Positions 2,403 to 60,895 of a DNA stretch of 64,000 bases are shown here, one piece after another (the first letter of the stretch is position 1; the number at the start of each line of letters is the position of its first letter). The stretch spans positions 4,151 to 68,150 of the forward strand of contig CAYRXT010000003.1 of the NCBI GenBank assembly GCA_964428315.1, written 5' to 3'. The notes beneath the pieces were generated by a model that was not told the origin of the DNA, made no database searches, and saw nothing but the letters and a program-made list of their open reading frames with translations. Source of the DNA: an uncultured Planctomycetales bacterium (GTDB taxonomy: Bacteria > Omnitrophota > Gorgyraeia > Zapsychrales > CAYRXT01). Made by a program: the position numbers and the translations under genes.

Positions 2403-2439
2403 GATTACCTGATTCTCATCACCAGCGTCAAACAGATGT

Positions 2440-3311: not shown

Positions 3312-4340
3312 CTAAGTTTTCTTCTCCCCCCAAAATCCCCCGACGTATCGCCGGTCCATCTTGTCCTTGAGAGGACGCCACCAGTCTTCATGATCCCGGT
3401 ACCAGGCGATGGTCTCCTTCATCCCCTCTTCCATGGTGCAATCCGGTTTCCAGCCGAGCGCCCTCAATTTGGAACAGTCCAGGCTGTAGCGGAAATCATG
3501 TCCGGGACGGTCCATGACATATTTGATGGATGATTCGTCCTTTCCCGTCAGCCGAAGGATAAGCCTAGTCAGGTCCAGGTTCGAACACTCACCCGTGCCG
3601 CCGATATTATAGGTTTCCCCGTCTTCGCCGTTTTCTACGACCCGGTCTATCCCCCGGCAATGGTCTTCGACGTGCAGCCAGTCGCGCACCTGCTTCCCTT
3701 CCCCGTAAAGGGGCACCTTTTTTCCCTCCAGCAAGTTAGTGATGAAAAGAGGGATGACCTTCTCCGGGTAACAGCGCGGGCCGAAATTATTGGAGGCCCG
3801 CGTCACGATCACGGGCAGTTTATAGGTCGCGTAAAAACTGTGGGCCAGCCGGTCGCCGCCCAGTTTGGCCGCAGCGTAGGGGTTGCGCGGTTTCGTCTCA
3901 TCGGTCTCCCGGAAACTCCCTTCCCTGATCTCGCCGTACACTTCATCGGTGGAGACCTGGACGAATTTGTGCAGGCCTTTCTGCTTCCTGGCCTCCTCCA
4001 GCAGGACATAGACTCCCACCACGTCGGTGTAGAGGAACTCCTCACCCCGGTCGATCGAGCGGTCCACGGCGGACTCGGCGGCAAAGTTGACGACGACCTG
4101 CGCGTCCTGCATGGCCCCGCGCACCGTCTCTTTGTCGCAGATATCGCCGCGGATGAATTCAAAATCATCACGGCCTTCAAAGGCCTTCACATTTTCCGGA
4201 TTGCCGGCGTAGGTCAGCTTGTCCAGGACACGGACACGTATGTCTTTCTTGTTCCGGAAAAGATAACGCACAAAATTGCTGCCGATAAAACCGGCCGCGC
4301 CGGTGATAAGATATGTCACCCTACCGGGTCTGCTTTTCAT
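3312..4340 (-). CDS. rmlB: dTDP-glucose 4,6-dehydratase
   Basis: ITGAAGFIGSNFVRY..., STDEVYG, YAAAKLGGD and the characteristic C-terminus (DHEDWWRPL). Confidence 0.9.
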   Translation of the reverse strand: MKSRPGRVTYLITGAAGFIGSNFVRYLFRNKKDIRVRVLDKLTYAGNPENVKAFEGRDDFEFIRGDICDKETVRGAMQDAQVVVNFAAESAVDRSIDRGEEFLYTDVVGVYVLLEEARKQKGLHKFVQVSTDEVYGEIREGSFRETDETKPRNPYAAAKLGGDRLAHSFYATYKLPVIVTRASNNFGPRCYPEKVIPLFITNLLEGKKVPLYGEGKQVRDWLHVEDHCRGIDRVVENGEDGETYNIGGTGECSNLDLTRLILRLTGKDESSIKYVMDRPGHDFRYSLDCSKLRALGWKPDCTMEEGMKETIAWYRDHEDWWRPLKDKMDRRYVGGFWGEKKT

Positions 4341-6387
4341 GGGGATCCCCTTTCACGGCCGGGCCCTTTGTCGGGACCAAAAGCCTTATAATGACCATGG
4401 CCAGCCCAAGGTTCAGCCAAAGGTAATTGCCGAGTTTGACGGAATAGAAGCTGGTCTCGAAGGCCGCGTGGACAAGAAACCCGAACAGGCCGCTCACCAG
4501 GCCGTACGCCACGAAGGTCAACGGCCCATGTGCCGCTTTTTTGAGTTGCCGTCTGGAAAAAACAAAGAACCGCCAGAAAATCCACAGGAAGGCGAACAAT
4601 CCAGGGATACCGGTCTCCGCCCCCATCTGCAAATAGCAGTTGTGAGGGTATCCCCCCCAGGAAATCTTATAGTTCCGGCCCACCTGGGAATAGGTGTTCA
4701 CGCCTGTTCCAAGGAATAAGTGGTCTGCCATAATGGCTATGGCCTCATGCCAATAATTAAACCTTCCCGAGGCCCTGAATTTCTTGATATCCTTTATTTT
4801 CTCTTTGGTTATCACCCTGAGTTTTTCCATCTCCCGGTTCACCGCCAGTTCGACAGGACTCTTTTCCATTTCCCTCCTTGAATCTTCGGCTTCATCCATT
4901 GCCACGATCCCGGATGATGTTTCCGGCAAGTGTTCCGGCGTTATAGGGGGCAACTCAAATCTCCCCTCTCTCATCCCTTCTGTTTCGGACTGAGTATTGG
5001 CAGCGAGTTCAGGGCCAAATTTCGGCCGGGATGCATGCCGTGCCAAGGCCCCGGCATCCAGGACAAAATCGTCCCGCTGCCATTGAGAGCCCAAGAGCGT
5101 CCAGAGACAGACATATATCTTGTCCGCAGTCACAGGCACATCTTTGACAACATGGGACCCGCCGGGCCCCGCCTTGCCGCTGTATATGTCGCCCCAGGGA
5201 TCGGACCGGAAATATTTTTTGTCCGAAGCCAGGCTGAGCCAGTATTTTTCTGCCTGTGCGTTCTCCTTCCAGGAAAACCTTAAATCCTGTCCGCCCTCCG
5301 AATAACTGATCAACTTCACTCTGAGGGCCGGGTCATAAACGTCTTTCCCGGGTTCCTTCACGGCCTCATATTCCGGATTCTCCGGACCTTTTGTTTCTTC
5401 AACATCCCCGTTGCCCTCGATTTTCACCGCCCTTTCTCTCCTTTCCCGGTCGGCGGATTCAATCTTATCAATCTTTTTTTGAATGGCGCGCGCGACACGC
5501 CTGGTGTCATCGGTAAAATAGGACACATTGCGCAGATTTTTCATTTGCTGGGTAAACACCAGTCCGAACATGACTATAATCAACAAACTCATGCCGGCAT
5601 ACCTGCGATTCGAAAACAGATAACAAATCAATCCGGCAAACAATCCGAAATAGACGGCCCGGGAATACGTCCATCCGATATTCATTATGATCAGGACGGC
5701 GAGTATCAGGAACAGGATAAACCCGATGGCCCTCCTGCGTATTGTCAGTGTCTTATGCCCGGGGTCGGCAAGACCGAACAATAAGCTCAGGACCATCATA
5801 ACAGGCACAAGGAGGTAGGCGCCGAAATCGTTGGGGTGGCGGAAACACGAACCGATGCGCCCTCCCGCAATAATCTTGTGCGCGAAAATAAAACCCTCAC
5901 CGGTATGGAACTGCCAGAGACCGTTGATCGAAACCAGGGTGACGGCGGCCAGGAAGACACCCAGCAGAAATCGCACCTGCCGACTGGTCTTCACGCATTC
6001 CAGGATAATAAAATACAGAAACGTCCATTCAAGGATCTTATAGAAGAATCCCTTCAGGCTTAAAGCGAGATAATCGCTGACCAGTATGGATAACGCATTA
6101 ACGGCAATAAAGACGACAATCGGTCCGTCCAGGACGCTGGGCTCCGGACGGAAAGAGGAAAGGAACAAACGCACGACCGAATAAGCCTTATTGAAAAGAC
6201 CGCCCCGCCCGCGTCTTTCATGATTCATGCGGAATACGAACAGGTGCAGGCGTTTGATCCAGAAGAAAAATATGACGGCGCCGGCAAAACTTTCACACAA
6301 CGCGATCGAAATGGGCAAAAAATAGATCAATCCCACGTATGAAAAAAACAGGATTCTGTTATAAAACCGATACGGAAAATTATTCAT
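4321..6387 (-). CDS. O-antigen ligase/Wzy_C family membrane protein with a ~300-aa hydrophilic insertion
   Basis: N-terminal TM bundle, then a charged soluble segment (RERRERAVKIEGNGDVEETKG... plus a folded-looking segment YEAVKEPGKDVYDPALRVKLISYSEGG...). The C-terminus carries the Wzy_C signature ...GGYPHNCYLQMGAETGIPG. Confidence 0.6.
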   Translation of the reverse strand: MNNFPYRFYNRILFFSYVGLIYFLPISIALCESFAGAVIFFFWIKRLHLFVFRMNHERRGRGGLFNKAYSVVRLFLSSFRPEPSVLDGPIVVFIAVNALSILVSDYLALSLKGFFYKILEWTFLYFIILECVKTSRQVRFLLGVFLAAVTLVSINGLWQFHTGEGFIFAHKIIAGGRIGSCFRHPNDFGAYLLVPVMMVLSLLFGLADPGHKTLTIRRRAIGFILFLILAVLIIMNIGWTYSRAVYFGLFAGLICYLFSNRRYAGMSLLIIVMFGLVFTQQMKNLRNVSYFTDDTRRVARAIQKKIDKIESADRERRERAVKIEGNGDVEETKGPENPEYEAVKEPGKDVYDPALRVKLISYSEGGQDLRFSWKENAQAEKYWLSLASDKKYFRSDPWGDIYSGKAGPGGSHVVKDVPVTADKIYVCLWTLLGSQWQRDDFVLDAGALARHASRPKFGPELAANTQSETEGMREGRFELPPITPEHLPETSSGIVAMDEAEDSRREMEKSPVELAVNREMEKLRVITKEKIKDIKKFRASGRFNYWHEAIAIMADHLFLGTGVNTYSQVGRNYKISWGGYPHNCYLQMGAETGIPGLFAFLWIFWRFFVFSRRQLKKAAHGPLTFVAYGLVSGLFGFLVHAAFETSFYSVKLGNYLWLNLGLAMVIIRLLVPTKGPAVKGDPHEKQTR

Positions 6388-6529
6388 AATATCATCGCTG
6401 TCTGAATTGCTCGCGAGTGACCACAGGGAGCGGCGAAGCCCCCTGCGGGGAAGCGATCTTATACTCGACAGTCAGGATTGCTTCAGCCGCTGTGCCCCTT
6501 CGCAATTATACTTTTGCCCTTCCCGCTAT

Positions 6530-8519
<1,990 letters not shown>

Positions 8520-8523
<4 letters not shown>

Positions 8524-9845
8524 TCCTTAAATATGTTCACAGTTCTATCATAAAACTTGCCGCCGTTCAACAGGTTATACGCTGAAAGGTACAGCCCGAT
8601 CCCGGTCCAGGTGAGAACCGATAACTGCAGTGTGTACAAATCGACGTCAAAAAAACTGTGGACCAATATCGAGACCGTACCGCTCCCCAAACCCAGGGCG
8701 AGGATCCGCAACGCGTTGTCCGCCGGCAGCAGTTTGGCCCGCGCCAGCCTCATCATTGTCTTGAAAAAAGAAAGGACGATCCAGACAAAGCCCAAGAGTC
8801 CCAAAAGACCGGTCTCGGCCGCCATCTGGATATAGCAGTTATGCGCGTAGGTTTCGGAAAACAACCTGTTCTGCGGCCGGCGACGGTAGTCCTGAAACAA
8901 ACGCATGTACGTGTTCAGACCGTGACCAAAAAAGGGCCTCTCGCGGATCATGGCCAGGCTGTCTTCCCAAATGTTCAGGCGCCAGAGAAGATGAGAGTGC
9001 AGTTCCCGGCCGCTTAGCCTTTCTTTGACTTTCGGGTTACCGCCGAGCATACTCCCCAGACAGCCCGCCACGATGACGGCCCCGAACAGGACCCCCGCCC
9101 ACTTTTTACTGCTGAGAACGACGAAAACCGCCATACCCGCCGCCGCGGACAACCATCCGGCCCGGGAGAAGGTCAGGCCCAAAAGCCAGCCCGCGCCCGC
9201 GGCCAAAACACAAAGCAAGAAACGTTTACCTTTTTGAGTTCCGCTCATAGCGAAAACGGCCGCAGACATCGGCAACATCATCGCCAGATAGGCCGCGAGA
9301 CTGTTGGCGTGATGGAATCCCGCTGTCGCTCCGCCCCGCGTGATCTCCCGTCCCAAAAAGATATCTGTTCCGGTCCAGTAATACTGGACAAAACCGTCGA
9401 GTACCACAGCGGTCGTGGTAACGAGAAAAACGATAACGGCCCGCCGGATGTGCTCCGCTTTGGAAAAGGCTTCAATGACAAGAAAATACACTACGAACCA
9501 TTCCAGGGTTTTTGTAAAAAAGCCTCTTAACGACAAAGGCCAGATCCGGCTGGCCGGAATGGACAAGACGCACGCCAGCAGAAAGAAGGCAATCGGTTTG
9601 TTCAAAGGGCTCCGGACCGGTTTAAGGGCAGAGAACAGGCCCCTGATTTGTTCAGTCCATCCATTCTTCCTGAAGATGCCCGGCCCGTACGCCAGCCCTC
9701 TTTTGACCAGCCACAACAACAAGGCGATGATGACACAGGACTCCACGACCGCCGTGCTGTAGGGGAGCCAAAAAATCAGCAGATAAATGAAAAACCGGAT
9801 CCCTGATTCGATATAACCGATTATTCTTTCTTTATTCATAATCAC
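8520..9845 (-). CDS. O-antigen ligase/Wzy_C family membrane protein
   Basis: Polytopic; ...[22 protein letters not shown]... is the Wzy_C motif. Confidence 0.6.
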
Positions 9846-9848
9846 CTG

Positions 9849-9966
9849 GGTCCCCGCTTAAGGCATGCCTCGAAGGGGTCTAATCAACGGGGATGACAGG
9901 TTCCTTTAACCGTGTTATGCCCGCCGAGTTGCCCCCCTTGGGGGCGTAAGCGGGCTTCCCGCATCA
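9849..9966. repeat. structured intergenic repeat element, copy A (~118 nt)
   Basis: Shares with 15090..15201 a 12-nt left arm (cccgcttaaggc), a ~33-nt conserved core (gatgaNag..cctttaacNgtgtYatgcccgccgag) and a right arm (ggggcgNaagcgggc). The right arm is the near reverse complement of the left arm, giving a closing stem. Confidence 0.6.
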
Positions 9967-11388
9967 ATACGCCCCTTTGCCTTTAATAACAACCGGCACC
10001 GTCTGCAAAAGGATATAAAGGTCCAGGAAAAAAGACCAGTTGTTGATATACCAGATATCCCATCGGATCAGCCGGAAAAAAGAGACGTCGCTGCGGCCGC
10101 GTATCTGCCAGAGACCGGTGATGCCTGGCCTGACCTCCAGCCTTTTGAACTGCCGCAGGTCGTGCTTCTCGATCTGCTCAATCGGCAGTGGCCGCGGCCC
10201 CACCAGGCTCATCTCTCCGTGCAGGACGTTGATCAGTTGCGGCAGTTCGTCAAGGCTGTATCTCCGCAAAAAGGACCCGATGCGCGTGACCCGAGGATCT
10301 TTTTTCATCTTGAAAATCGGACCGTCCGTCTCGTTGAGATTACGCAGGTCCTTCAGCCTTTTGTCCGCCTCGTCAACCATGCTCCTGAATTTCAGCATAG
10401 AGAAGATCCGGCCCCTACGGGAGTAACGCCGAGACTTGTAAAAAACGGGTCCGGGGCTGTCAGCTTTGATTATAAGCGCAATGACAAGAAAGACCGGAAA
10501 GAGCACGATCAATGCGGCCAGGCTCATGACAAAATCAAAAAGCCTCTTGCCCAACTGTCTGCGAGTGTCGATGAGACCCGTATATTCCAAAACGGGGATG
10601 AATCCGATATTGAAACGGACGAGTTCCCCCTCGATATGTGAAAAACCCTCGGGTATGACGCGGACAGAAACACCCAGTTCCCTAGCCTGATCCAGAAGAC
10701 TCAAAAACGCCTTGCTGTCATGATGGATCGTAATGAAAACCTGGTGGATAAATTCCCTTCTGGCGACCGGCACGAAATCCGTGATCCGGCCCAGTATTTT
10801 CGGCGAATCCTCCGACTTCATTTCGGTTTTAAAATCATCCAGAAAGCCGGCCACGCGCAGTCCCAGGCTCGGCTGTTTCTTGATTTCCCAGGCCAGGGCG
10901 CTCCCGATCTTTCCCGCGCCGATCACCAGCACGTTAAAGTTGTTGTATCCGTGTGCCACGATATAATCGACAACCATCCTTTTCGCCATCCGCCAGAGAG
11001 ACATGAAGACAAACATGAACCCCGAGGTGATCGCAACGATCGTTCTCGGAAAACCCTCGATCTTGAGGACGTAAATCGTCACGATCAGGATAAGGGTGGC
11101 GATGACAACACATTTCAGCACCAGTAATATTTCCACGCCTTTAAAAACCTCGCGCCGGGTCTGGTAAAGGCGGTTGGCGTTGGCGCAGGAAACCGCCGAC
11201 AGGATCCACAGGGCGAAAAGATAACGGAAGGGATTGTCCTGGCTGAAAAGGATCCCGTCCCATGTGACCGGAAAACCCAGCGTCCCCTGACGGATCCATG
11301 AGGCCAGGAATACGGCCAGATAGATGACGAAAAAGTCAACGGCGATATAAAAACTTTTGATGAGGTAGTGGTTGATGATTCTTGTCAT
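9964..11388 (-). CDS. polyprenyl-phosphate phosphoglycosyltransferase (WbaP/WcaJ-like initiating enzyme)
   Basis: N-terminal TM helices and a Rossmann-like middle (VLVIGAGKIG). The C-terminal bacterial sugar-transferase domain reads ...KMKKDPRVTRIGSFLRRYSLDELPQLINVLHGEMSLVGPRP... Start chosen at M16 (MTRIIN), 3 nt after the upstream gene's stop. Confidence 0.85.
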   Translation of the reverse strand: MTRIINHYLIKSFYIAVDFFVIYLAVFLASWIRQGTLGFPVTWDGILFSQDNPFRYLFALWILSAVSCANANRLYQTRREVFKGVEILLVLKCVVIATLILIVTIYVLKIEGFPRTIVAITSGFMFVFMSLWRMAKRMVVDYIVAHGYNNFNVLVIGAGKIGSALAWEIKKQPSLGLRVAGFLDDFKTEMKSEDSPKILGRITDFVPVARREFIHQVFITIHHDSKAFLSLLDQARELGVSVRVIPEGFSHIEGELVRFNIGFIPVLEYTGLIDTRRQLGKRLFDFVMSLAALIVLFPVFLVIALIIKADSPGPVFYKSRRYSRRGRIFSMLKFRSMVDEADKRLKDLRNLNETDGPIFKMKKDPRVTRIGSFLRRYSLDELPQLINVLHGEMSLVGPRPLPIEQIEKHDLRQFKRLEVRPGITGLWQIRGRSDVSFFRLIRWDIWYINNWSFFLDLYILLQTVPVVIKGKGAY

Positions 11389-12143
11389 GACCTGTGGAAC
11401 GCGGACCGCGCCGCGCTGCGTGCCAGAAGGCACAAAAATTTCGTATTGCCGACGATATAACGTTTGCCCAGCCGCCGGGGTTCAGACATCAGCCGGAACA
11501 ACCATTCTAAACCGCTTCTTTGCATCCAGCAAGGGGCCTGCCTCTTTTCTCCGGAAAGGAAATCGAAGGCCGCCCCCACCCCGATCATCACCGGCGCCTC
11601 CAGGGCGGATCTGTTTTCGGCCATCCAGAAATCCTGCCTGGGCGAACCAAGTCCGACCCAGAGGATGTCAGGACTGGCCTTGTTAATGACGTCGACCATC
11701 CTGCGGTTTTGCTCCTCCGTGAACGCGCCGAACGGCGGGGCCAGGATTCCCGCGATCCCGATGCCCGGGAACTTCTTCTTGAGATTGTCCGCCAGCCGTC
11801 CGCACACTTCCGGCGTTGAACCGAAAAAGAAATGCGTAAACCTCCGCTTCAGTCCGTACCCGCACAACGCCAGAAGAAGATCGGGACCGTAAGTCCGGGC
11901 GATCATCCTTGACCCCCGGGCCTTCCCCAGCCAGACAAGCGGCATACCGTCGGGTGTGACGATCTCCGCATTGTTGACAACGCGGCGGTACCTTGGATCA
12001 TCCGCCGCCGCCACGATGGTAGAGACCGGGGCGACACACACATAGCCTTTGCGCCTTTGCGCGATCCACGCTTCAATATACCCGCATGTTTCCGAAAGAT
12101 TGGTGTCCGAGACCTCTACACCTAACACGTTAAAGCGGTTCAT
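11385..12143 (-). CDS. WecG/TagA/CpsF family glycosyltransferase (GT26)
   Basis: MNRFNVLGVEVSD... and ...VGLGSPRQDFWMAE... are typical GT26. The ORF-track N-terminal extension to 12380 overlaps the upstream GT2. The ATG at 12141-12143 overlaps that gene's stop (ATGA coupling). Confidence 0.8.
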   Translation of the reverse strand: MNRFNVLGVEVSDTNLSETCGYIEAWIAQRRKGYVCVAPVSTIVAAADDPRYRRVVNNAEIVTPDGMPLVWLGKARGSRMIARTYGPDLLLALCGYGLKRRFTHFFFGSTPEVCGRLADNLKKKFPGIGIAGILAPPFGAFTEEQNRRMVDVINKASPDILWVGLGSPRQDFWMAENRSALEAPVMIGVGAAFDFLSGEKRQAPCWMQRSGLEWLFRLMSEPRRLGKRYIVGNTKFLCLLARSAARSAFHRS

Positions 12144-12877: not shown

Positions 12878-12934
12878 CGCCCGCCCTACCTCCCTCTTAT
12901 TCTCGTGTTTCCGTTTACCGGCTCATAAGCCGCC

Positions 12935-13633
12935 TCATCGTCTTTGAAAAGCCTTCTCCCACATCAAAAGGACGTGATCCCAGACCACCCGGGCCGACAA
13001 TTTACTGCGGCCGCAGTGACGGCCGCGGAACTTGTAGGGGATCTCCTTAAGCCGGACAGGTCCCGGGGAAGACGCGCACAGATCCAAAAGAATCTTGTAG
13101 CCCCGGCCCGAGAGGCCCGGCCGGCATGCTTCGAAAAATTCCCTGCGCACAACAAAAAAACCGCTCATGGGATCCTTGATACCGGTCCGGCTTATGCGCC
13201 GTCCCAGCCAGGTGGCCGTCCGGCTGATCCATGCCCGCGGTGCCGACAACCCCTGCGCCCCCCCGCCTTCAACATACCGGCTTCCGACAGCCACATCGCA
13301 GTCCTCCTCTTTCAAGGCCTCCACCATGGCCGGGATAATGGTCTCGTCATGCTGAAGATCCGCGTCCATGACCCCAAGAAATTCCGCCCGGCTGACTGCC
13401 ATCCCTTCAATGCACGCGGATGAGAGACCCCGCCGGCCGATCCGTTTCAGGCAGCGAACCCGCCGGTCCTGGCGGGCCACCTCGGAGACGGCCCCGGCCG
13501 TTCCGTCAGGAGAATCATCGTCGACAAAGATGATTTCCCAGTCGATGCCTTCCAGCACGCGTCTCAGTCTCTCGTACAGCGTCCGGATATTCTCTTTTTC
13601 ATTGTATGTGGGGATCACCATGCTTAATTCCAT
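12935..13633 (-). CDS. GT2 polyprenyl-phosphate sugar synthase (DPM1/ArnC/GtrB-like)
   Basis: LSMVIPTYNEKENI...FVDDDSPDGT...MDADLQHD. Sits immediately upstream of a GT-C membrane protein. Confidence 0.75.
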   Translation of the reverse strand: MELSMVIPTYNEKENIRTLYERLRRVLEGIDWEIIFVDDDSPDGTAGAVSEVARQDRRVRCLKRIGRRGLSSACIEGMAVSRAEFLGVMDADLQHDETIIPAMVEALKEEDCDVAVGSRYVEGGGAQGLSAPRAWISRTATWLGRRISRTGIKDPMSGFFVVRREFFEACRPGLSGRGYKILLDLCASSPGPVRLKEIPYKFRGRHCGRSKLSARVVWDHVLLMWEKAFQRR

Positions 13634-13651
13634 GATAAATATTCCTCATCC

Positions 13652-15043
13652 TCACCTTTTCCGCGGCAGCCACCGGTCCCAAAAGACCGCGACGCATATG
13701 ATGTACAGCGGCGCGACCGGCAGGGCGTATCTCGTCAAAATCGAATAACACGAATACAGGGCCATAAAGGGAACGATAACGAGCAGAGTAAAGGCCGGCA
13801 GTGCCGCCCCGCCGTCCCCGGAAAATATCCGCCTTCCTTTCGCAAGGACGCGGGCTAAAACATAGAAAAACCCGAACGCGGTCAAAAGCCCCGTCACGGC
13901 ACGCACGCCGTAACGCACAGCCTTCGCGTCATAGATTTTCCCCAGCCAGTCCGGATAATTGACAAAACCGATTTGGGTTGATTCCCAAAAAAACAGTTTG
14001 GGCGCCTCGAGCAGCATAAATAAAATGAATTTTGCCGGGTTCTCCCTGATAAAACGGAAAGTCAGGCGAAGGGTTTCGCCGGACCGCTCGTCGTCCGGAA
14101 CGCCTTTTAGGTACCGCTCAAGGTCCACGAGCCCGTAATAATCGGTCGTGGTGAAATTACAGTACGCGCATTCCTCCCGGGTAAAAAACATCCGGCACAC
14201 CCCGTCCCCGGGGATGTTCGCGACATGGGCGGCGACGATCCGCGGTGTCACCTCGCGGCTGCGCTTGTAGGCCGAACCGAAGAGCATCCAGTCGAAACGG
14301 TTGGTAAAGGCGTAGTTACCGTTATGCACCTTGTTCAGGTATTTGTATCCGGCCACGCCGCCCTCAAAAAGGAGGAGCACGGTAAAAAGGAATACGGCCG
14401 TATTCTTCAAACACCTCTTGTCCCTGGACGCTAAACTCTGAAAAAACCGGAAAACAAAAGGGATCAGGCATAAGAAATAAACATACTGGAACACGCCTTT
14501 GGAAAAGACACTCAGGCTGAAGGCTAGGCCCGTCAGAAGCGACCATCCCAAGACCCGCCGGATCCCGGCGTCGAGGAGCAAAAGCCACGAACGGTAAAGG
14601 CAATACACGGTGGCCAGGACAAAGGGAAAACTCATGATCTCGGAAAAAAGACTCATGCTCGCGTTAATAAGGGCGGGCGATAGTCCGATGTAGAGCACCG
14701 CCGCCATTTTGACGCCTTCCCTCACCCTTAGCCGCGAAAGGATCAACAGCGCCATGACCTGGGTCAGGAAAAGGAGGAAAACCTGAAAGATCTTCTGAAT
14801 GCTCTGGTACTGGGCCCCGAAAAGTTCAGCCATTTTCATCGAAAAGGCGATGGACAAAGGGTAAAGCGGCTCTCTGCGCGGGCCGCTCTTCAGATAGCCG
14901 TCGACGAAGCCGCGCTCTACGATCCGCTCCCCCAGCCCTTCATAGCTCCTGGCGTCCATACTGATGTTCATACGGCTCGCAAAGATTAAATGGGCCCAGA
15001 AAACAAAACAGAGGCTGAAAATAATTATCCATATCTTTTTCAT
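13652..15043 (-). CDS. GT-C fold membrane glycosyltransferase (ArnT/PMT_2-like)
   Basis: About 12 TM helices. The first periplasmic loop has DARSYEG, which resembles the DEARY motif of the ArnT/PMT family. Paired with a polyprenyl-P-sugar synthase. Confidence 0.5.
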   Translation of the reverse strand: MKKIWIIIFSLCFVFWAHLIFASRMNISMDARSYEGLGERIVERGFVDGYLKSGPRREPLYPLSIAFSMKMAELFGAQYQSIQKIFQVFLLFLTQVMALLILSRLRVREGVKMAAVLYIGLSPALINASMSLFSEIMSFPFVLATVYCLYRSWLLLLDAGIRRVLGWSLLTGLAFSLSVFSKGVFQYVYFLCLIPFVFRFFQSLASRDKRCLKNTAVFLFTVLLLFEGGVAGYKYLNKVHNGNYAFTNRFDWMLFGSAYKRSREVTPRIVAAHVANIPGDGVCRMFFTREECAYCNFTTTDYYGLVDLERYLKGVPDDERSGETLRLTFRFIRENPAKFILFMLLEAPKLFFWESTQIGFVNYPDWLGKIYDAKAVRYGVRAVTGLLTAFGFFYVLARVLAKGRRIFSGDGGAALPAFTLLVIVPFMALYSCYSILTRYALPVAPLYIICVAVFWDRWLPRKR

Positions 15044-15089
15044 GAGACTTCCTTTTTTCCGACGGTTTTCTTTTTTTTACATCCTCTTT

Positions 15090-15201
15090 GGATGCCCGCT
15101 TAAGGCGTACGGCCGACAGCGCCTCTGTGAGGGAGATGAAAGTCCCTTTAACTATGTCATGCCCGCCGAGCAGGCCCATTAAGGGGCGGAAGCGGGCATC
15201 C
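15090..15201. repeat. structured intergenic repeat element, copy B (~112 nt)
   Basis: See copy A. ggatgcccgcttaaggcg...tccctttaactatgtcatgcccgccgag...ggggcggaagcgggcatcc, where the outer arms are inverted repeats. Confidence 0.6.
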
Positions 15202-15210
15202 AGGTCATTC

Positions 15211-16413
15211 TCAATCTGACGCAACGGATTGTCGCCGCTTCGACTCCCGCAAAGCGTAAGCGTACACCTCCATCAGCCTCTCATGATTCTTATCCGGAGA
15301 CAGTTCCCGTTCATAATGCGTCTTCATATTTTCGCGGATACCGGGAAGCACATGCTCATTGCGCATAATCCACCGCACTTTTGCGGCCAGTGATTCCGCC
15401 GCCGGCTCAAAAAGGAATCCCGTTTCCCCCTCCTTCACCAGTTCCGGCATACCGCCCAGGCGGCTCACCGCAAGAGGCACCTGGCAGGCAAACGCCTCGG
15501 CCACTGTCCGGGGAAAATTCTCATAACAGACCGAAGGGACGATCATGAGTTTCGCGCCGCGAAGAGTCGCGTCATATTCAACGGGACTGAGAAAACCGCG
15601 GAATTCGACATGCTCAAGGTCATTTTGCCGGACAAAGGCCTTCATCTCATCAAACAACGGGCCCTGCCCAACGACTTTCAAAGTCAGGTCCGGGATGGAC
15701 GCCCACGCCTGGAGAAGAATCCGGATCCCTTTTTCTTCGCTCAAACGTCCCGCAAAAAGGGCATACCCTCTGTCTTCACTTTTGGCCTCACCGGAGGTGA
15801 ACGCGACATGCGGTTTGACAAAGATCTTCTCCGCCGGGACGCCGGCTGCGGCGTATTTCTGCCGGCCGAATTCCGTGGCCATGATGTAGGCGTCGACCAT
15901 GCGCGTCCAGGTGCCTCTCTTCCAGTGGTCTTCCAGCATCCGGACCATGACAAAGGTCAGCAAACGCGAATTCTTATAGCATCCGTAGCGCACGCCCCTG
16001 CGCAGAGACTTGTGCTCCCGGCACTCCTCGCATATCCTTCCGTCACGCAGAAAAAGGGCGTTCGAACATAAGAGCCGGAAATTGTGCTGGCTCTGCACGA
16101 CCGGGACCCCTTCGTCCCGGCAGGCCGCGTACACCGAAGGGGACAGCATGAAAAAGATGTTGTGGAAATGCGCGACCTCCGGCCGGAAATCCGCGATCAC
16201 CCTGCGCATGGCGTCATACGATTCCCGCGACCAGCGCATATCCGCGAAAAACCGCAGCGTCCGCAAAGGCGAAAGCCCGTCGAGCTCGCTGTTGCTGCGT
16301 TCATAATAACGCACCTCGTGGCCGTAACGACGCAGGAGATCGCGTTCGTTTTCGGCCACCGCGTCTTCCCCGCCGGGATGGCGGTACCGGTTGTGAGCGA
16401 TCAAGATACGCAT
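15211..16413 (-). CDS. GT4 (group 1) glycosyltransferase
   Basis: MRILIAHNRYRHPGGEDAV... with a C-terminal GT-B domain (EGFPRTVAEAFACQVPLAVS...). Confidence 0.8.
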   Translation of the reverse strand: MRILIAHNRYRHPGGEDAVAENERDLLRRYGHEVRYYERSNSELDGLSPLRTLRFFADMRWSRESYDAMRRVIADFRPEVAHFHNIFFMLSPSVYAACRDEGVPVVQSQHNFRLLCSNALFLRDGRICEECREHKSLRRGVRYGCYKNSRLLTFVMVRMLEDHWKRGTWTRMVDAYIMATEFGRQKYAAAGVPAEKIFVKPHVAFTSGEAKSEDRGYALFAGRLSEEKGIRILLQAWASIPDLTLKVVGQGPLFDEMKAFVRQNDLEHVEFRGFLSPVEYDATLRGAKLMIVPSVCYENFPRTVAEAFACQVPLAVSRLGGMPELVKEGETGFLFEPAAESLAAKVRWIMRNEHVLPGIRENMKTHYERELSPDKNHERLMEVYAYALRESKRRQSVASD

Positions 16414-16483
16414 GTTTTAACCGGAATTTTTCCGATGCCAGATGCCCGGTATCCAGTAAATCTCTAAGCAACACATTCCAAAT

Positions 16484-17404
16484 TCAACGCATCGTGTCCC
16501 TGTAATATTCCAGCGTCTGTCCCAGGCTTTCTTTCAAACGGACTTCCGGCTGCCAATCCGAAATCCGCCGCAGTTTCCGGTTCGACCCGACGCTGACGGG
16601 AATTCCTCTTGAAGAGTCTTTATTCTCTTTGATGTTGATCGTTCTTTTGTGTGCCTGGGTGAGCAGACAATGGACGACAGAACGCACGGCGCGCCCTTTT
16701 CCTGAGCTGACATGATAGATCTCTCCGGCCCTGCCGCGCCGGGCCACGGCCCAGAGACCGCGGCAGACATCCCGCACGTCGAGAAAATCCCGTTTCGCGG
16801 ACAGGTCACCCGTTTTGAGAACGTGTTTACTTATCATCCTTTCCATGAGGACAATATCACGGGCGAACGCCCCCGTGGAAAGGACCGGCGGCGTCCCGGG
16901 CCCGGTGATATTAAAAATCCGCGCGATGACCACGTCCAGCCCATTCCGGGCGAACATCAAGCCGAGCGCGGTCTGCATATATTTCACATAGCCGTACCAG
17001 CTCAGCGGACGGGGACAATCCTCTTCGGTAAGCATCCCGCCGCCGGTTTTCTGTCTCCCGTATTCGGCCGCACTGCCGGGAAGGACCACGCGAATAGCCT
17101 TCTTTTCACCGCAAATGGCATCCAGCAGGTTCGCCGTTGACCGGACATTCGACCTGATGAGGCCTTCCCTCTCTCCGGACCGTCCCCCGGCGAGATGAAA
17201 TACGATGTCAGGACGGAGAAGGGCCACGCATTTTCTTACCTGCGCCGGCGAACCCATGTCGCAACGCAAATATTTCTTTTCATTTCGCGGCCCGCGGATA
17301 TCACAGCCATAAATGTCCCAACGCGGCGCAATCTCCTCAAGACAGCATTTGAGGGCCCCTCCCAAGAAGCCTTTCACGCCGGTGATCAATATGCGTTTCT
17401 TCAT
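16484..17404 (-). CDS. NAD-dependent epimerase/dehydratase family (extended SDR) sugar nucleotide reductase/epimerase
   Basis: ILITGVKGFLGGAL and a YxxxK-type SDR. Downstream of a nucleotidyltransferase plus 4,6-dehydratase pair. Confidence 0.6.
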   Translation of the reverse strand: MKKRILITGVKGFLGGALKCCLEEIAPRWDIYGCDIRGPRNEKKYLRCDMGSPAQVRKCVALLRPDIVFHLAGGRSGEREGLIRSNVRSTANLLDAICGEKKAIRVVLPGSAAEYGRQKTGGGMLTEEDCPRPLSWYGYVKYMQTALGLMFARNGLDVVIARIFNITGPGTPPVLSTGAFARDIVLMERMISKHVLKTGDLSAKRDFLDVRDVCRGLWAVARRGRAGEIYHVSSGKGRAVRSVVHCLLTQAHKRTINIKENKDSSRGIPVSVGSNRKLRRISDWQPEVRLKESLGQTLEYYRDTMR

Positions 17405-18123
17405 GGCTTGTCCTTAAGGAACTTCCTCCCGTGCCTGCGAAACATCTCCTGCGAACGCTCCAGGTCGTCCGCGCGGCCCAGGTCAAGCCAGAGCCCCTTC
17501 ATGGGATAACAGTGCACGGCCTCGCCGGCGTCTCTTAATCTGAGCATCAATTCCGGCATCCCTATGCGCTCATTGCGCTTTATGTACCGGCGGCACCGGC
17601 GGGAAAACATATTGATGCCCGTGCTGACAAAGGATCGGTGTTCCGGCTTTTCGATATAATCCAGAAACCGGCCCTTCCCGTCGCTTTCCACGACGCCGAA
17701 ATCCGTCCTGACGATTCTTTCCTTGAGGACCATCGTGACCTGTCCCTCGTGTCTCTTGTGAAACGCCGTTAAACCTCGGAAATCCAGGTCCGTCAGGGTA
17801 TCGCCGTTGACGACAAGAAAATGCGGAGCCACATCCGGGATGAGATTAATAGCGCCGGCCGTCCCCAGAGGTTTTTTCTCTTCGACATACTCGATACGCA
17901 CCCCCCATCTTGTCCCGTCACCGAAATAGGCCTTGATCAATCCGGAGAGATATCCCGTGGCCATGCAAACCTTTGTGAAGCCGTAACTCTTTAACTGGCG
18001 GACAATGATCTCGGCGATGGGCATCCCGTGGACAGGGACAAGCGGCTTGGGGAGCACGGCCGTGTAGGGGCGCAGACGCGACCCCAGTCCCCCGGCAAGT
18101 ATGACAGCCTGAATTTTAGACAT
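17401..18123 (-). CDS. sugar-1-phosphate nucleotidyltransferase (HddC/RmlA-superfamily, short form)
   Basis: MSKIQAVILAGGLGSRLRPYTAVLPKPLVPV...GTAGAI. Start moved to the ATG at 18121-18123; the ORF-track extension overlaps the upstream gene. Confidence 0.7.
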   Translation of the reverse strand: MSKIQAVILAGGLGSRLRPYTAVLPKPLVPVHGMPIAEIIVRQLKSYGFTKVCMATGYLSGLIKAYFGDGTRWGVRIEYVEEKKPLGTAGAINLIPDVAPHFLVVNGDTLTDLDFRGLTAFHKRHEGQVTMVLKERIVRTDFGVVESDGKGRFLDYIEKPEHRSFVSTGINMFSRRCRRYIKRNERIGMPELMLRLRDAGEAVHCYPMKGLWLDLGRADDLERSQEMFRRHGRKFLKDKP

Positions 18124-19108
18124 TGTAGATCTCCGGTTTATATCGGTTGAGGTTGTCCTTGAACCAGCGGCAGGTCTTTTCCAGACCAGCCTCCAAATCG
18201 ACCTCGGTCTGCAATGAGACAAGCGAACGGAGTTCTCCGGCGTCGCAAACAAGCCTTTCCACTTCGCTTTTCGGCGGACGGAACCGTTCCTTCTTTTGGA
18301 CGATTCCGGCCCTGCGCCCTGTCATACGGCACAGCATACCGAACACGTCCCGGATCGAAGCTTCTCTCCCGCTGCCGTAGTTGAAGGTCCTGCCGATGGC
18401 CCGGTCTTCCCCGGCCAGCGCCAAAAAGGCATTGACCGTATTACCGACATAATTGAAATCCCGGGTGGAACCGATGTTTCCCAGGGCGACGGACTTTTTC
18501 CCCGCGTAAAGCTGGCTGATGATAGTCGGGATCACCGCGCGGGCCGACTGGCTCGGCCCGAAGGTGTTGAAGGGACGCAGGACCGTCACCGGCAGATCAA
18601 AGGAACGGTAAAAAGACAGCGCCAGCGTGTCGGCCCCGGCCTTGGTGGCGGCGTACGGGCTCTGGGGATTGACCGGATGTTTCTCATCGATGGGGACATA
18701 CTGGGCGGTCCCGTAAATCTCACTCGTCGAGGTATGGACCACCTTTTCCGCGCGGTGTTTTCTCGCGGCCTGAAGGATATTGAGCGTGCCCTTGATATTG
18801 GTGTCCACATAGCTGTCCGGGGAATGATAGCTGAAGGGGATGCCGATCAAGGCCGCGAGGTGGAAGACGACGTCGATGTCTTCCACCGCCTTTTCGACGC
18901 CGTGGGGATCACGCACATCCCCGGTGAAGATGTCAATCTTCCGTTTCTTCTTTTCCGGCAGAGTGTCCAGCCACCCCCAGTGGTTAAAGGCGTTGTAATA
19001 GACAAAGGCGCGGACCGTGGCTCCTTTGCCCAGTAAACGCTCCGTTAAATGGCTTCCGATGAATCCGTCGGCGCCTGTCACCAATACTCTTTTCCCCACC
19101 CAGTTCAT
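18116..19108 (-). CDS. NDP-sugar 4,6-dehydratase / UDP-glucuronate decarboxylase-like extended SDR
   Basis: VLVTGADGFIGSHL, STSEIYG and PYAATKAGAD match the catalytic signatures of 4,6-dehydratase/UXS enzymes. Confidence 0.7.
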   Translation of the reverse strand: MNWVGKRVLVTGADGFIGSHLTERLLGKGATVRAFVYYNAFNHWGWLDTLPEKKKRKIDIFTGDVRDPHGVEKAVEDIDVVFHLAALIGIPFSYHSPDSYVDTNIKGTLNILQAARKHRAEKVVHTSTSEIYGTAQYVPIDEKHPVNPQSPYAATKAGADTLALSFYRSFDLPVTVLRPFNTFGPSQSARAVIPTIISQLYAGKKSVALGNIGSTRDFNYVGNTVNAFLALAGEDRAIGRTFNYGSGREASIRDVFGMLCRMTGRRAGIVQKKERFRPPKSEVERLVCDAGELRSLVSLQTEVDLEAGLEKTCRWFKDNLNRYKPEIYNV

Positions 19109-21534
19109 GACGCGAATCCTTTCTCCCGTATCTTCTCTTCATTCATAAGTTTTCTGTAACGGGCAAAGGTTAACCCATAGATAGTCCAAATCGGAATCGC
19201 CGTGTAAGGGACCTCGAGCACCACCAGAAAATTGGCGGCCACAAACCAGTTGATAACGGCGGCCGAAAGCATGACCCCGATTAATGATTTCTTTTTCAGA
19301 AATAAGCCTATCATGTTCAACAAAAGGCCGAAAACAACTAGTAACCCGAACAGGCCGACCAGCCCGGAACGATAGAGTATGTGCAGAAAGGAATTGTGCG
19401 CCGCGACCCATCCGTCGCGCCGCCATTCGCCGGTGCCCCATCCGAGGACCTCGAGACTGATCGAACGCAGGGGTTTGCCAAACATGAAACCCAGATACGG
19501 AAAAGGCCGGTTATGCCAAAATTCATTGATCATGTCTTTCCAGATAAACAGACGAAACGCGACGTTCGTATAATACACGGCCTGGGGACGGGAAGGCTCG
19601 GCCTTTATCCTGCCGGCTTGCCTGTTACGGGGTTTCTCCGCTGAATCTCGGGATGCCTTTTCTATCCTTTCGCGCGCCCTTTCAAAAATGCCCGGGCTTT
19701 TCGAAGGCAGGCCCTCCATCGATGAGCTAAAGGTTTTTTTCGAAGCCGGTTTGCTGATCGAAGCGATGCCGGTTTGCGGATGTCGAACAGTTTTTAAGTG
19801 GGCCGCGGGCGCCAGATGGAAGTCTTGCGAGGAGGCTTCGTTTGATTGTTCAGATGCTTCGGCCTCCTGTTTCATGCCGGCCTGCAATTCTTTCTCGATC
19901 CCTTCGGCCCGTCTATGCCTTTGACCGGGGCTCCTGTCGACCGAATCAGGCCTCGGCACAGTATCTAGCGCTTCAACTGCTCTGTCTCCGGGTCCCGCCT
20001 GTGCGGACGGAGTCCGCGTCCCCTCGATTTGCGGCTCGGAAGCCACGGAGTCTTTTTCGATTCCCTGGACGGACAAATCTTCAGCCTTGCCCTGGTCCGC
20101 CTCCCTCCCCGATATTGAAACCTGCGCGGTCTCACTTAACGAGCCAGTCAACGGGACCTCATCTTCTGTCTTTTCACCAAGCCGAGCTTCTTCCTCACGG
20201 TGTTCAGCCGCGCCTTCTTCCAAAATATTGCCGGCAGCCGCGCCTCGCGTCCCGGCCGTCACTGTAGCGTCATCCTCGTCCCCTGCTGATAGCTCTTCCG
20301 TCTTTGTCTGCTCATCCACAATCTGTCGACCTTCTTCCGGCATATCAGGTCTTCCCGATTTTCCCAATGCATTGTCCTTTCTCATAACCATGGCTAAACG
20401 CGCATAATACTCTTTGTCTCGCTCCAAGTCCTTAAACAGCTTTTCACTCTCGAGTGGTAAAACCCTAAAAACAGGCCCTCCTTCATATACTTCGGCATCC
20501 AGGGACTTCTCTAAATCCTCTTCGCCCGAGAGCCCTTCTCCCGTCTCCTTCGCCCCCAGACCGCGCAGCCTTCGGCTGATTTTTATCTTTCTCTTCTTAT
20601 CAATGACGCGAAGGATGCTGTTGACTTCCTTTCGCTGTCTTTCGATAAAATTGCACTCGTTCGGGCTGTAGACCTTCAGATCCTCGATTTCATGCGGCCG
20701 GTAATAAGGGATTCTGTTCTGAACTGTCTGATTGTAATAATAATAAACCTCCAGAATTTTAGGCCAGTTCAAGATCGAACGCAGAGACCGCTGGTCAGCG
20801 ATTCGCGCGTAACCAAGGAAGACAGTCAGGACAACGCACGTTAAAATTAAAACCTTCTTCAGGCGGTTAACATTCCATATGAAAAAAAGAGGCCCTATAA
20901 GAAACGCTCCGGCCACAAAGTTGCTTACCATCATCATCCGCGCCGTCTTAAATAAAAGCCGGAACTCAAACAGAGCCAGGAAAACAGCCAACAAAACGTA
21001 GCGAAGTCTCCCCGGGATTTTATAGATCAAGATTAAACCAAGCATGAGCACGCTAAAAAGCCAATAATGATCAAAAATACCAATTAAAAATGCCCCGAAA
21101 AATAAACCCAAAATTGCTACATTGACCGGTGTCGTAAAAAATTCTTTCCGGTAAAAACTCCACGTCAAAACGGCAAAGAGAGGATAATAAAACAGGGCCG
21201 CGTTACGGAAGGCCAGAGGCCCCCAATGGGCGTACCCCGCGAACGCCTTGCCCAGGACAAACGCCAAATAACCGGCCATAACAAAGCTCCACAATCCGGT
21301 CAGACGCCGTTTCCCGAGCAGGGCCTGTTTCCAGAGAAAAAGACCCAGGCAGAAGGCCAGAAATATTTCCCCGGTGAAGACCGGAAAATCCAAAAAAGGC
21401 AGTCGCAGATGCATCTGCGCGAATGAACGTTTGAACATAAAGTACATCATGCATAAAAATCCGATCAGACAAAAACCTGCTGCGTCAATCCAGAAGATCC
21501 GATCATCCAGATTCTTTACCGGCCATCTACGCAT
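19105..21534 (-). CDS. Wzy_C/O-antigen ligase family membrane protein with a ~400-aa low-complexity acidic insertion
   Basis: N-terminal TM bundle (aa 1-250). A ~400-aa E/K/S/A/G/D-rich segment follows. The C-terminus has ...WVAAHNSFLHILYRSGLVGLFGLLVVFG... plus TM helices. Confidence 0.55.
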   Translation of the reverse strand: MRRWPVKNLDDRIFWIDAAGFCLIGFLCMMYFMFKRSFAQMHLRLPFLDFPVFTGEIFLAFCLGLFLWKQALLGKRRLTGLWSFVMAGYLAFVLGKAFAGYAHWGPLAFRNAALFYYPLFAVLTWSFYRKEFFTTPVNVAILGLFFGAFLIGIFDHYWLFSVLMLGLILIYKIPGRLRYVLLAVFLALFEFRLLFKTARMMMVSNFVAGAFLIGPLFFIWNVNRLKKVLILTCVVLTVFLGYARIADQRSLRSILNWPKILEVYYYYNQTVQNRIPYYRPHEIEDLKVYSPNECNFIERQRKEVNSILRVIDKKRKIKISRRLRGLGAKETGEGLSGEEDLEKSLDAEVYEGGPVFRVLPLESEKLFKDLERDKEYYARLAMVMRKDNALGKSGRPDMPEEGRQIVDEQTKTEELSAGDEDDATVTAGTRGAAAGNILEEGAAEHREEEARLGEKTEDEVPLTGSLSETAQVSISGREADQGKAEDLSVQGIEKDSVASEPQIEGTRTPSAQAGPGDRAVEALDTVPRPDSVDRSPGQRHRRAEGIEKELQAGMKQEAEASEQSNEASSQDFHLAPAAHLKTVRHPQTGIASISKPASKKTFSSSMEGLPSKSPGIFERARERIEKASRDSAEKPRNRQAGRIKAEPSRPQAVYYTNVAFRLFIWKDMINEFWHNRPFPYLGFMFGKPLRSISLEVLGWGTGEWRRDGWVAAHNSFLHILYRSGLVGLFGLLVVFGLLLNMIGLFLKKKSLIGVMLSAAVINWFVAANFLVVLEVPYTAIPIWTIYGLTFARYRKLMNEEKIREKGFAS

Positions 21535-33190: not shown

Positions 33191-33234
33191 CTCATTGTGC
33201 GCCTTGAACGGACGACCTCCGGCCCCGTTCCGCC

Positions 33235-37887: not shown

Positions 37888-37905
37888 AACCTCCAGATTT
37901 TTGGT

Positions 37906-40895: not shown

Positions 40896-41023
40896 AGGAA
40901 CAAACCTGTGGAGACACTCTTGCCACAGCTTCACGGCCCGGCACCGCGCCGCTCTCAAGACGGATGCGGGGGGCCAACGGCCTCCCCCTCTCTCCTCAGC
41001 ATGCCTGTTTGGACCTTTGGTTT

Positions 41024-51464: not shown

Positions 51465-51466
51465 CC

Positions 51467-56558: not shown

Positions 56559-56578
56559 GTTTATTGTCTTAAAAATAA

Positions 56579-56595
56579 TGTTCAATGATTGAACA
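56579..56595. promoter_or_regulatory. perfect 7-3-7 palindrome tgttcaa-tga-ttgaaca overlapping the predicted +1 of the sigma70 promoter (candidate operator)
   Basis: Direct reading: tgttcaatgattgaaca is its own reverse complement. It lies 3-16 nt downstream of the -10 hexamer. Confidence 0.5.
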
Positions 56596-60763: not shown

Positions 60764-60895
60764 TCAGGCCGTTCCTTCATTTTTTTTGCTATGATAACAT
60801 TTTTATACGATTTGTGAATTCATGCAAGAATTTTCCAAGATTTCTGGTAAGATAACATGGTCTTTTGTTCAGTTTGTCCAATAACAGGATAACCC

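Follow-up and report, generated by a model that had tools for sequence, protein, structure and literature searches.

The 64-kb window analyzed here (the whole studied stretch of contig CAYRXT010000003.1, from an uncultured bacterium of the Omnitrophota lineage) carries one very large glycan-biosynthesis locus, in which three Wzy_C-type proteins, named W1, W2, and W3, are encoded on the minus strand. The three proteins are probably WaaL-fold, ligase-type transferases for undecaprenyl diphosphate (Und-PP)-linked glycans, of which W1 and W3 bear accessory inserts at a permissive periplasmic site. A sequence-only reading of the window had pointed to three open reading frames (ORFs) of this kind, and all three were present on the minus strand as listed below.

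4321..6387, minus strand: W1, 688 aa, membrane transferase of WaaL fold (Wzy_C), carrying an inserted domain
8520..9845, minus strand: W2, 441 aa, minimal Wzy_C/WaaL-like enzyme of canonical form, periplasmic loop of 68 aa
19105..21534, minus strand: W3, 809 aa, member of an Omnitrophota-associated divergent Wzy_C/WaaL-like subfamily

W1, W2, and W3 share the Wzy_C family fold

Searches with the Pfam Wzy_C model (PF04932, gathering score 31.7 bits) showed that W1 (53.6 bits, E = 2.7e-14) and W2 (81.8 bits over the full domain, E = 5.5e-23) both pass the gathering score; the two proteins share 34% identity. In NCBIfam, W1 and W2 came closest to the IctB family (TIGR00947, cutoff 366.4 bits; W1 40.2 bits, W2 62.8 bits, W3 no match) and PEP_O_lig_1 (TIGR03097, cutoff 188.1 bits; W2 53.8 bits, W1 and W3 no match), both of which comprise uncharacterised Wzy_C-type membrane proteins. 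By these cutoffs none of the three is a member of either family.

On the combined evidence of sequence comparison and structural models, W3 is a divergent member of the same superfamily that the Pfam model misses, because some of its relatives pass the cutoff, its loop-deleted profile aligns with the W1 family, its best structural match is WaaL, and the core of its AlphaFold2 (AF2) model is confident. The relatives of W3 straddle the Wzy_C cutoff (16-34.5 bits), with P0034 (34.5 bits) and P0057 (33.2 bits) passing it. At E <= 3e-44, 35 homologues of W3 were found, many with a precomputed PF04932 assignment and two named 'O-antigen ligase family protein [Candidatus Omnitrophica]'. When the raw W3 family profile (A2) was compared with the W1 family profile (A3) by hhalign, the match was weak (61%, E = 8e-5), and with the loop-deleted W3 profile (A5) it reached 95.9% (E = 6.1e-9) over 236 columns, spanning the S/T-R motif, the catalytic helix, and the HN motif up to the last transmembrane (TM) helices.

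The W1-family profile matched WaaL of Cupriavidus metallidurans (7TPG) in HMMER with E = 3.9e-6. The core of the W1 model has a predicted local distance difference test score (pLDDT) above 90, and its top Foldseek match was 7tpg_B (E = 6.7e-4, probability 1.0, TMt 0.59). The TM core of the W3 model reached a pLDDT of about 90, and its top match was again 7tpg_B (probability 0.93, E = 0.19, 197 columns). The ranking was thus the same for W1 and W3 in that 7tpg_B came first, followed for W3 by SEDS proteins.

The conserved block H-N-x-[YF]-L/I-Q-x-x-A/G-E-x-G, which the sequence-only reading had assigned to the ends of all three proteins, is present in W1 (HNCYLQMGAETG) and W2 but not in W3. The W3 motif HNSFLHILYRSG is degenerate and keeps only H-N-x-F-L...G, the Q and [AG]-E being absent. 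The W3 subfamily has its own motif, HNSFLHxxYRxG, together with the extra invariant motifs FLDFPIFIGE and GPLAFRNAALFYYP.

The database version of W1 (P0001) is 665 aa long, starting 23 codons downstream, and omits the segment encoded by 6319..6387, which cuts the conserved TM1 (FSYxxLIYFLPISIAL). The ATG at 6387 is the better W1 start because it keeps this conserved helix.

A WaaL-type arginine/arginine/histidine triad is conserved in all three proteins

The WaaL triad Arg-191/Arg-265/His-313 is conserved in W1, W2, and W3, the proposed equivalents being R243/R542/H582 in W1, R228/R289/H335 in W2, and R199/R661/H713 in W3, assigned by alignment. In the alignment with 7TPG, R542 of W1 falls on Arg-265 and H582 on His-313; R243, which lies in the invariant T-x-S-R motif, was equated with Arg-191 by motif (TRGA vs SRA), the HMMER register being uncertain there. 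Hhalign paired R199, R661, and H713 of W3 with R243, R542, and H582 of W1, respectively. No variation was seen at R661, R690, or H713 among 34 W3 relatives, and at least 90% of them keep R199.

The histidine is present at the WaaL His-313 position in W1, W2, and W3 and is invariant in both the W1 and W3 families. Inverting Wzy-type polymerases of the same clan are reported to have Asp or Glu at this position (PMC10920833), and the triad is common to E. coli WaaL (R215, R288, H338) and the protein oligosaccharyltransferase PglL (R224, R298, H349) (PMC3643930). Because of the histidine, we infer that W1, W2, and W3 are ligase- or oligosaccharyltransferase-type rather than polymerase-type enzymes.

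The inserts of W1 and W3 lie at one site in the predicted periplasmic loop after TM9

The AF2 models of W1 and W3 place nine TM helices before the large loop and three after it, which is the WaaL layout. With the N-terminus inside, lysine plus arginine residues in short loops number 17/81 inside vs 3/39 outside in W1, and 15/48 inside vs 2/32 outside in W3. The loops of both proteins are predicted to be periplasmic because an odd number of TM helices precedes the loop when the N-terminus starts inside, and because the positive-inside counts agree. The topology on which the sequence-only reading had made its case depend, a periplasmic loop carrying the catalytic motif, was therefore the one predicted by the TM helices and the positive-inside rule. 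Its view of the extra segments as insertions into the extracytoplasmic catalytic loop also agrees with the layout of WaaL 7TPG and with the occurrence of the W1 module elsewhere in secreted proteins.

Hhalign and a three-way alignment showed that the inserts of W1 and W3 occupy one shared site, after the first periplasmic helix that follows TM9 and before the helix carrying the second arginine.

Two origins of the inserts were considered and set aside. Slippage-driven expansion was rejected, since tandem DNA repeats were found in neither insert. Recent foreign acquisition is unsupported, since the inserts (0.56-0.66) and the cores have a similar G+C content at third codon positions (GC3).

W1 carries a single copy of a repeat module otherwise found in secreted proteins

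4774..5529, minus strand: W1 insertion region, aa 287-538, with charged linkers, predicted long helices, and a globular module
5038..5304, minus strand: single copy of an ~80-90-aa repeat module, W1 aa 362-450, detected by phmmer, with no Pfam model

The periplasmic loop of W1 is ~297 aa long vs 68 aa in W2. The 24 homologues of W1, whose hydrophilic loops measure 70-141 aa vs 318 aa in W1, are 406-501 aa long except for one 741-aa tetratricopeptide repeat (TPR) fusion. The closest of them (P0002, P0007, and P0008) have a K/E-rich stretch of ~60 aa at the insert site, making W1 ~170-200 aa longer. In the AF2 model, long helices at aa 295-325 (pLDDT ~80-90) and 494-536 (pLDDT 60-80) flank an unmodelled middle, and the linkers have a charged-residue fraction of 0.39-0.44.

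An exhaustive phmmer search with W1 aa 305-500 was carried out against 1.84 billion representatives, in which the parent P0001 was recovered at E = 1.8e-127. The insert was found in no W1 homologue, and its linkers were matched only by P0001 in this set. A word-indexed search with the 196-aa W1 insert gave no match at E <= 10, not even to P0001, and is uninformative. At E <= 1e-3, 652 representative clusters matched W1 at aa ~365-450 and nowhere else. The sequence-only reading had described a charged insertion of ~300 aa with a folded-looking subdomain in W1, and the subdomain proved to be these residues (362-450), which match a repeat family.

The consensus of the module reads ...VTFTW..G.GA.EYWLDVGT...DIY...TSATVSGLPTDGSTIYVRLWS..GG.WQYNDYTYTA, with the alternative form SVTFTWTAGSGASEYWLDVGT..GGGDIYS...TSATVSGLPTDGSTIYVRLWSLIGGAWQYNDYTYTA. 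Its carriers have 2-17 tandem copies with a period of ~94 aa, to which the W1 copy aligns well. The best matches are hypothetical proteins of Omnitrophota, and further carriers include an S8 peptidase of Acidobacteriota and an M6 metalloprotease of Planctomycetota. The carriers contain 0-3 hydrophobic segments; an N-terminal signal-like segment was detected in 67/149, and none of the 149 is polytopic, leaving W1 as the only polytopic carrier among the 150 best module representatives. W1 is thus a WaaL-like core with one captured copy of a secreted-protein module.

No Pfam match was obtained for the module from nine carrier proteins and 40 isolated copies, no PDB match was found by sequence or profile, tblastn gave no match in plasmids or phages, and the module was absent from 80 loci carrying W3 relatives. 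The repeat is a candidate new domain family. One carrier is labelled by NCBI as 'fibronectin type III domain-containing'; a relationship to fibronectin type III is unsupported by hhalign against human 10Fn3 (2.8%).

The W3 loop is a hypervariable disorder-type segment

19585..20664, minus strand: W3 hypervariable disorder-type periplasmic segment, aa 291-650, with a pLDDT mostly below 50

The loop of W3 is ~479 aa long, and ~360 aa of it (291-650) cannot be aligned to relatives. The segment is a polyampholyte with a net charge of -11, a charged fraction of 0.36, basic ends, and an acidic middle; 77% of its residues are disorder-promoting, 2.5% are aromatic, and its entropy is 3.9 bits. The segment, described earlier as ~400 aa of acidic/Ser/Ala/Gly-rich low complexity, is biased in composition but not strictly of low complexity. 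Compared with its nearest relatives, W3 has 34-41% identity in the core vs 7-24% in the loop, and its 360 aa correspond to 44-100 aa in these proteins.

An enlarged loop at the same site was found in 34/34 database homologues of W3 (137-647 aa). The search gave 98 W3 relatives, nearly all from Omnitrophota metagenome-assembled genomes or third-party annotation bins labelled Planctomycetales (one genome per species). In 70 cleanly extracted ORFs of the family, proteins of 391-1007 aa (median 532) have loops of 130-641 aa (median 203), showing the variability of the loop; that of W3, measuring 484 aa here, is exceeded in 2 of the 70. A Laminin_G_3 (LamG) domain, which is a ConA-like lectin/glucanase type, lies inside the loop of P0048 (aa 573-723) and of L045:9926-12859, with scores of 65-70 bits.

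Two irregularities were seen among the relatives. The 1007-aa protein L018:9354-12377 consists of two complete W3-like proteins fused head to tail, and in L026, L032, L039, and L069 the W3 match extends past a single ORF, which may reflect tandem paralogues.

W3 relatives are encoded with a conserved gene cassette

21527..22372, minus strand: TuaG-like GT2 (Glycos_transf_2 111.9 bits; NCBIfam TuaG-like 74 bits, below cutoff)
18116..19108, minus strand: LegB-like 4,6-dehydratase (Pfam/NCBIfam)
17401..18252, minus strand: sugar-1-phosphate nucleotidyltransferase (Pfam/NCBIfam)
16484..17404, minus strand: epimerase/reductase (Pfam/NCBIfam)
15211..16413, minus strand: GT4 (Pfam/NCBIfam)

The 3' end of the GT2 gene overlaps the start of W3 by 8 nt. 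Synteny was counted in 80 loci carrying W3 relatives, with neighbours taken within 7 kb. In 46/80 loci (38/80 by a stricter window), the gene directly upstream of the W3 relative encodes a TuaG-like GT2, and the other neighbours include a GT4 in 61/80, a LegB/RmlB-like dehydratase in 56/80, and a nucleotidyltransferase in 36/80. The exact order GT2-W3-dehydratase-nucleotidyltransferase-epimerase-GT4 (22372..15211 in the window) recurs in at least nine loci. W1- or W2-like genes occur within 10 kb of W3 relatives in 8/80 loci. The phylum-wide conservation of the enzyme and its neighbours suggests a conserved glycoconjugate, unlike the serotype-specific Wzy genes.

Proposed mechanism and its weak points

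9964..11433, minus strand: initiating polyprenyl-phosphate glycosyl-phosphotransferase, WbaP/WcaJ-like (Bac_transf 229 bits; TIGR03025 409 bits, cutoff 295.55)
52457..54277, minus strand: ABC exporter with fused transmembrane and nucleotide-binding domains, MsbA/HepA/PglK-like (ABC_tran 115 bits; ~6 TM helices)

In the proposed mechanism, W1, W2, and W3 would be three paralogous, divergent inner-membrane transferases (GT-C_B, Wzy_C, CAZy GT121-like) with 12 TM helices each and an active site facing the periplasm, in which the two arginines would bind the diphosphate of Und-PP and the histidine would activate the acceptor. Donors would be assembled on the cytoplasmic face by the WbaP-like phosphotransferase and the GT2 and GT4 enzymes. 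The MsbA/PglK-like ABC exporter, or a flippase whose gene lies elsewhere, would possibly flip them, and the glycans would then be moved en bloc onto periplasmic acceptors. The exporter scored 304 bits with HepA, 280 with MsbA, and 196 with PglK, each below its cutoff, and is the sole flippase candidate in the window. The sequence-only reading had remarked on an ABC flippase candidate in a locus with no Wzx or Wzz, and the scan agreed with it: no Pfam match to Wzx (Polysacc_synt/MOP) or Wzz was found among minus-strand ORFs of at least 150 aa, plus-strand ORFs being unscanned. The remaining polytopic proteins in the window are GT-C-like proteins, the phosphotransferase, the ABC exporter, and a CitMHS transporter.

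W2 would represent the minimal enzyme, and W1 and W3 carry additional sequence at the same permissive site after TM9. The W1 insert may be a lineage-specific domain capture, with one copy of a beta-rich module between two predicted long helices. In W3, a disordered polyampholyte linker would have expanded to an extreme degree; both the length and the sequence of this linker are hypervariable across the subfamily, which travels with a GT2 gene and a 6-deoxy-sugar nucleotide cassette. In the least certain step, the inserts would stay outside the chemistry and might serve in binding an acceptor, glycan, or partner or in spacing, giving each paralogue its own acceptor or context. An accessory role is favored because modules were captured independently in two subfamilies, the enlarged loop was retained, and its composition was maintained; a role as spacer or scaffold, as first suggested from the sequence, is plausible. 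A bolder version, which we regard as quite improbable, holds that the loop before the arginine helix is a modular 'specificity slot' in Omnitrophota, in which binding modules or disordered tethers would set acceptor choice, a Wzz-like distance or chain length, or self-glycosylation, and that W3 and its cassette build an envelope glycoconjugate conserved throughout the phylum.

Several points weigh against the ligase interpretation with accessory inserts. W3 scored 19.9 bits with Wzy_C (E = 6.9e-4), under the gathering score, its Foldseek match to 7tpg_B is weak, and the W3 family profile, full or loop-deleted, did not reach 7TPG in the PDB by HMMER; the full profile returned only low-complexity noise (a designed helical repeat and huntingtin). 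The rule that separates histidine from acidic residues is a published, alignment-derived hypothesis, and some Wzy polymerases also belong to Wzy_C. For want of alignment depth, the pLDDT of both inserts is mostly below 50, so that the helical hairpin and the module fold in the W1 insert are inferences. The unalignable loop of W3 would be equally expected of a functionless drifting linker. The flippase role of the ABC exporter is that of a candidate only, and no lipid A-core, pilin, or S-layer genes or other evident acceptor were visible in the 64-kb window.

Alternative explanations

The most serious alternative, although still an unlikely one, is that the inserts are functionally neutral, the loop being tolerant of insertion and filled with drifting sequence in W3 or by accidental capture in W1. 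This would agree with the failure of the W3 loop (130-641 aa in the family) to align even with the closest relatives, with the confinement of the W1 insert to W1 among its homologues, and with the maintenance of the catalytic residues whatever the insert. Pure drift, however, does not readily account for a loop of at least 130 aa in all of the more than 100 members of the W3 family vs ~70 aa in canonical enzymes, for a charged, aromatic-poor composition that is kept though the sequence is not, for the independent capture of folded binding-type domains in two subfamilies, or for the retention of a 360-codon open frame. The same frame argues against an artefact of chimeric assembly, frameshift gene fusion, or sequencing error, an explanation with very little credibility. 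The source is a metagenome-assembled genome and no close relative has inserts this long, but an identical W1 (the 665-aa start variant) is present in the Logan assembly of SRR7048224, and an identical 809-aa W3 with the same neighbours on a 53.8-kb Logan contig of SRR7048225. The halves containing TM1-9 and the catalytic helix with TM10-12 are joined in one frame across 250-360 stop-free codons, neither half alone is a complete enzyme, the GC3 of the inserts is like that of the cores, and such loops are found throughout the W3 family. The genes are thus intact and the inserts real, which settles the concern about assembly artefacts raised with the sequence-only reading.

That reading had also considered protein O-oligosaccharyltransferases or polymerases. 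The former, in the style of PglL, PilO (TfpO), or PglS, would most plausibly be W1 or W3, with the insert recruiting protein acceptors or the Ser/Ala/Pro-containing W3 loop being itself glycosylated; we judge this fairly unlikely. These enzymes share with W1-W3 the Wzy_C domain, the topology, and the R/R/H triad, and they move Und-PP-linked glycans en bloc. PglL and WaaL cannot in general be separated by sequence (PMC3643930). Further classes of O-oligosaccharyltransferase are known besides PglL. The presence of three paralogues in one locus suggests different acceptors, the loops contain binding-type modules (the repeat in W1, LamG in W3 relatives), and the locus encodes a pathway of pseudaminic-acid type. 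Pseudaminic acid is often used on pilins and flagellins. However, the PglL_A motif (PF15864), reported to be conserved in PglL and not in WaaL (PMC3643930), gave no match at E <= 1 in W1, W2, or W3, and no adjacent pilin or obvious target gene was seen; a scan for the prepilin motif G[FMY][TS][LF][ILVM]E found no prepilin-like ORF in the window or within +/-10 kb of the 80 W3 relatives. The three genes moreover lie inside glycan-synthesis cassettes, the opposite of the usual pglL context (PMC3643930), and LamG domains are lectin-like and more often bind carbohydrate. Improbable, in our estimate, is the arrangement in which one or two paralogues are Wzy-type polymerases and another is the ligase, the inserts replacing the missing Wzz. 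Pfam Wzy_C also includes some Wzy polymerases, which have fold and clan in common with WaaL (PMC10920833), and Wzy/BP-Pol enzymes (clan GT-C1, GT125-GT131 type) have a related fold, diphosphate-binding arginines, and a location in polysaccharide clusters. No Wzz was found among the scanned ORFs of the window, the loop length varies widely between species, and long predicted helices flank the W1 insert, recalling the helical periplasmic domains of co-polymerases. Against this stand the histidine in place of Asp or Glu in all three proteins, the lack of a Wzx among the scanned ORFs of the window, and the conservation of the W3 family (30-59% identity, strict motifs across the phylum, and a fixed GT2 partner), Wzy proteins being poorly conserved and serotype-specific. 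Multiple WaaL paralogues per genome are also known, with three in Yersinia enterocolitica (PMC3643930). The idea of a polymerase is thus disfavored, and for that of an O-oligosaccharyltransferase two usual signatures, PglL_A and a neighbouring target gene, are missing.

Relation to known systems

The closest known system is WaaL (Cupriavidus metallidurans 7TPG/7TPJ; E. coli; CAZy GT121), which has the same 12 TM helices and large periplasmic loop between TM9 and TM10 and is the best structural match of the W1 and W3 models. It uses the Und-PP-linked class of donors that the WbaP-type initiating enzyme of the locus would make. WaaL differs in that W1 and W3 carry inserts of ~200-360 aa in the catalytic loop (repeat module and helices in W1, disordered in W3), the W3 subfamily is very divergent, and the window has no visible core genes for a lipid A-core acceptor. 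Precedent for accessory modules exists in bimodular Wzy_C proteins (WadA, which is GT121 plus GT25, and the TPR fusion P0005), where the fusions are terminal, whereas the modules of W1 and W3 lie inside the periplasmic catalytic loop.

The kind of enzyme is well known, and NCBI already names relatives of W3 'O-antigen ligase family protein'. What appears to be new is the insertion of a domain or tether into the loop, the Omnitrophota subfamily with its hypervariable loop and cassette, and the repeat domain that has no Pfam model. The literature search found nothing on loop insertions in Wzy_C enzymes, nor on Omnitrophota ligases beyond generic mention. WaaL, PglL, and other Wzy_C enzymes determine which molecules are coupled to the cell surface and are used for glycoconjugate vaccines, and their choice of acceptor is poorly understood. 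Enzymes with domains or tethers in the loop offer a natural test of whether the loop governs acceptor selection or product length; if the inserts are neutral, they mark a position of high insertion tolerance that is useful for engineering such enzymes. Two groups also become annotatable, namely the WaaL-like subfamily of Omnitrophota, partly missed by Pfam thresholds, and the ~80-aa repeat domain (at least 652 clusters).

Other features of the locus

33235..35189 and 47250..52432: pseudaminic-acid-type gene set, with PseG (184 bits, above cutoff), NeuB/PseI, and a PseB-like Polysacc_synt_2 protein

The minus strand carries all substantial ORFs from ~650 to 58,150. RmlB (428 bits) is encoded directly downstream of W1, and gmd (551 bits) with an fcl-like gene directly downstream of W2. 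The locus further encodes a WecG/TagA-type transferase, about ten GT2 and GT4 enzymes, C- and O-methyltransferases, and three GT-C/PMT-like membrane proteins. The pseudaminic-acid-type set also includes DegT aminotransferases, a GNAT protein, PseC-, PseF-, and PseH-like genes, and two CTP_transf_3 proteins, one carrying a fused GFO/IDH/MocA oxidoreductase. No Rfam families or tRNAs were found in the window.

At 654..3198, a GT2 resembling polyprenyl-phosphate-sugar synthases (AglJ/PpgS-like, 65-70 bits) adjoins a polytopic membrane protein of 617 aa, which has a soluble domain at its C-terminus and matched neither Pfam nor NCBIfam models; the two look like a pair of donor synthase and GT-C enzyme. 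A second pair, of GT2 and PMT_2, is located at 54455..56585. Four ORFs within the locus have no Pfam match (31598..33265, 555 aa; 39276..41027, 583 aa; 37276..37887, 203 aa; 43166..43891, 241 aa), and the 555- and 583-aa ORFs have no NCBIfam match either. The sub-cluster at 36353..43134, with FabH-like, DUF4910/DUF2172/M28-like, and aminoglycoside-3-N-acetyltransferase-like proteins and a class-III aminotransferase, points to a sugar that receives N-acyl or amino modifications. The glycan locus ends at ~58.1 kb; 59378..64000 holds the genes for the CitMHS transporter and for an alpha/beta hydrolase and, cut off by the edge of the window, the 3' part of a malto-oligosyltrehalose synthase gene (TreY, 508 bits).

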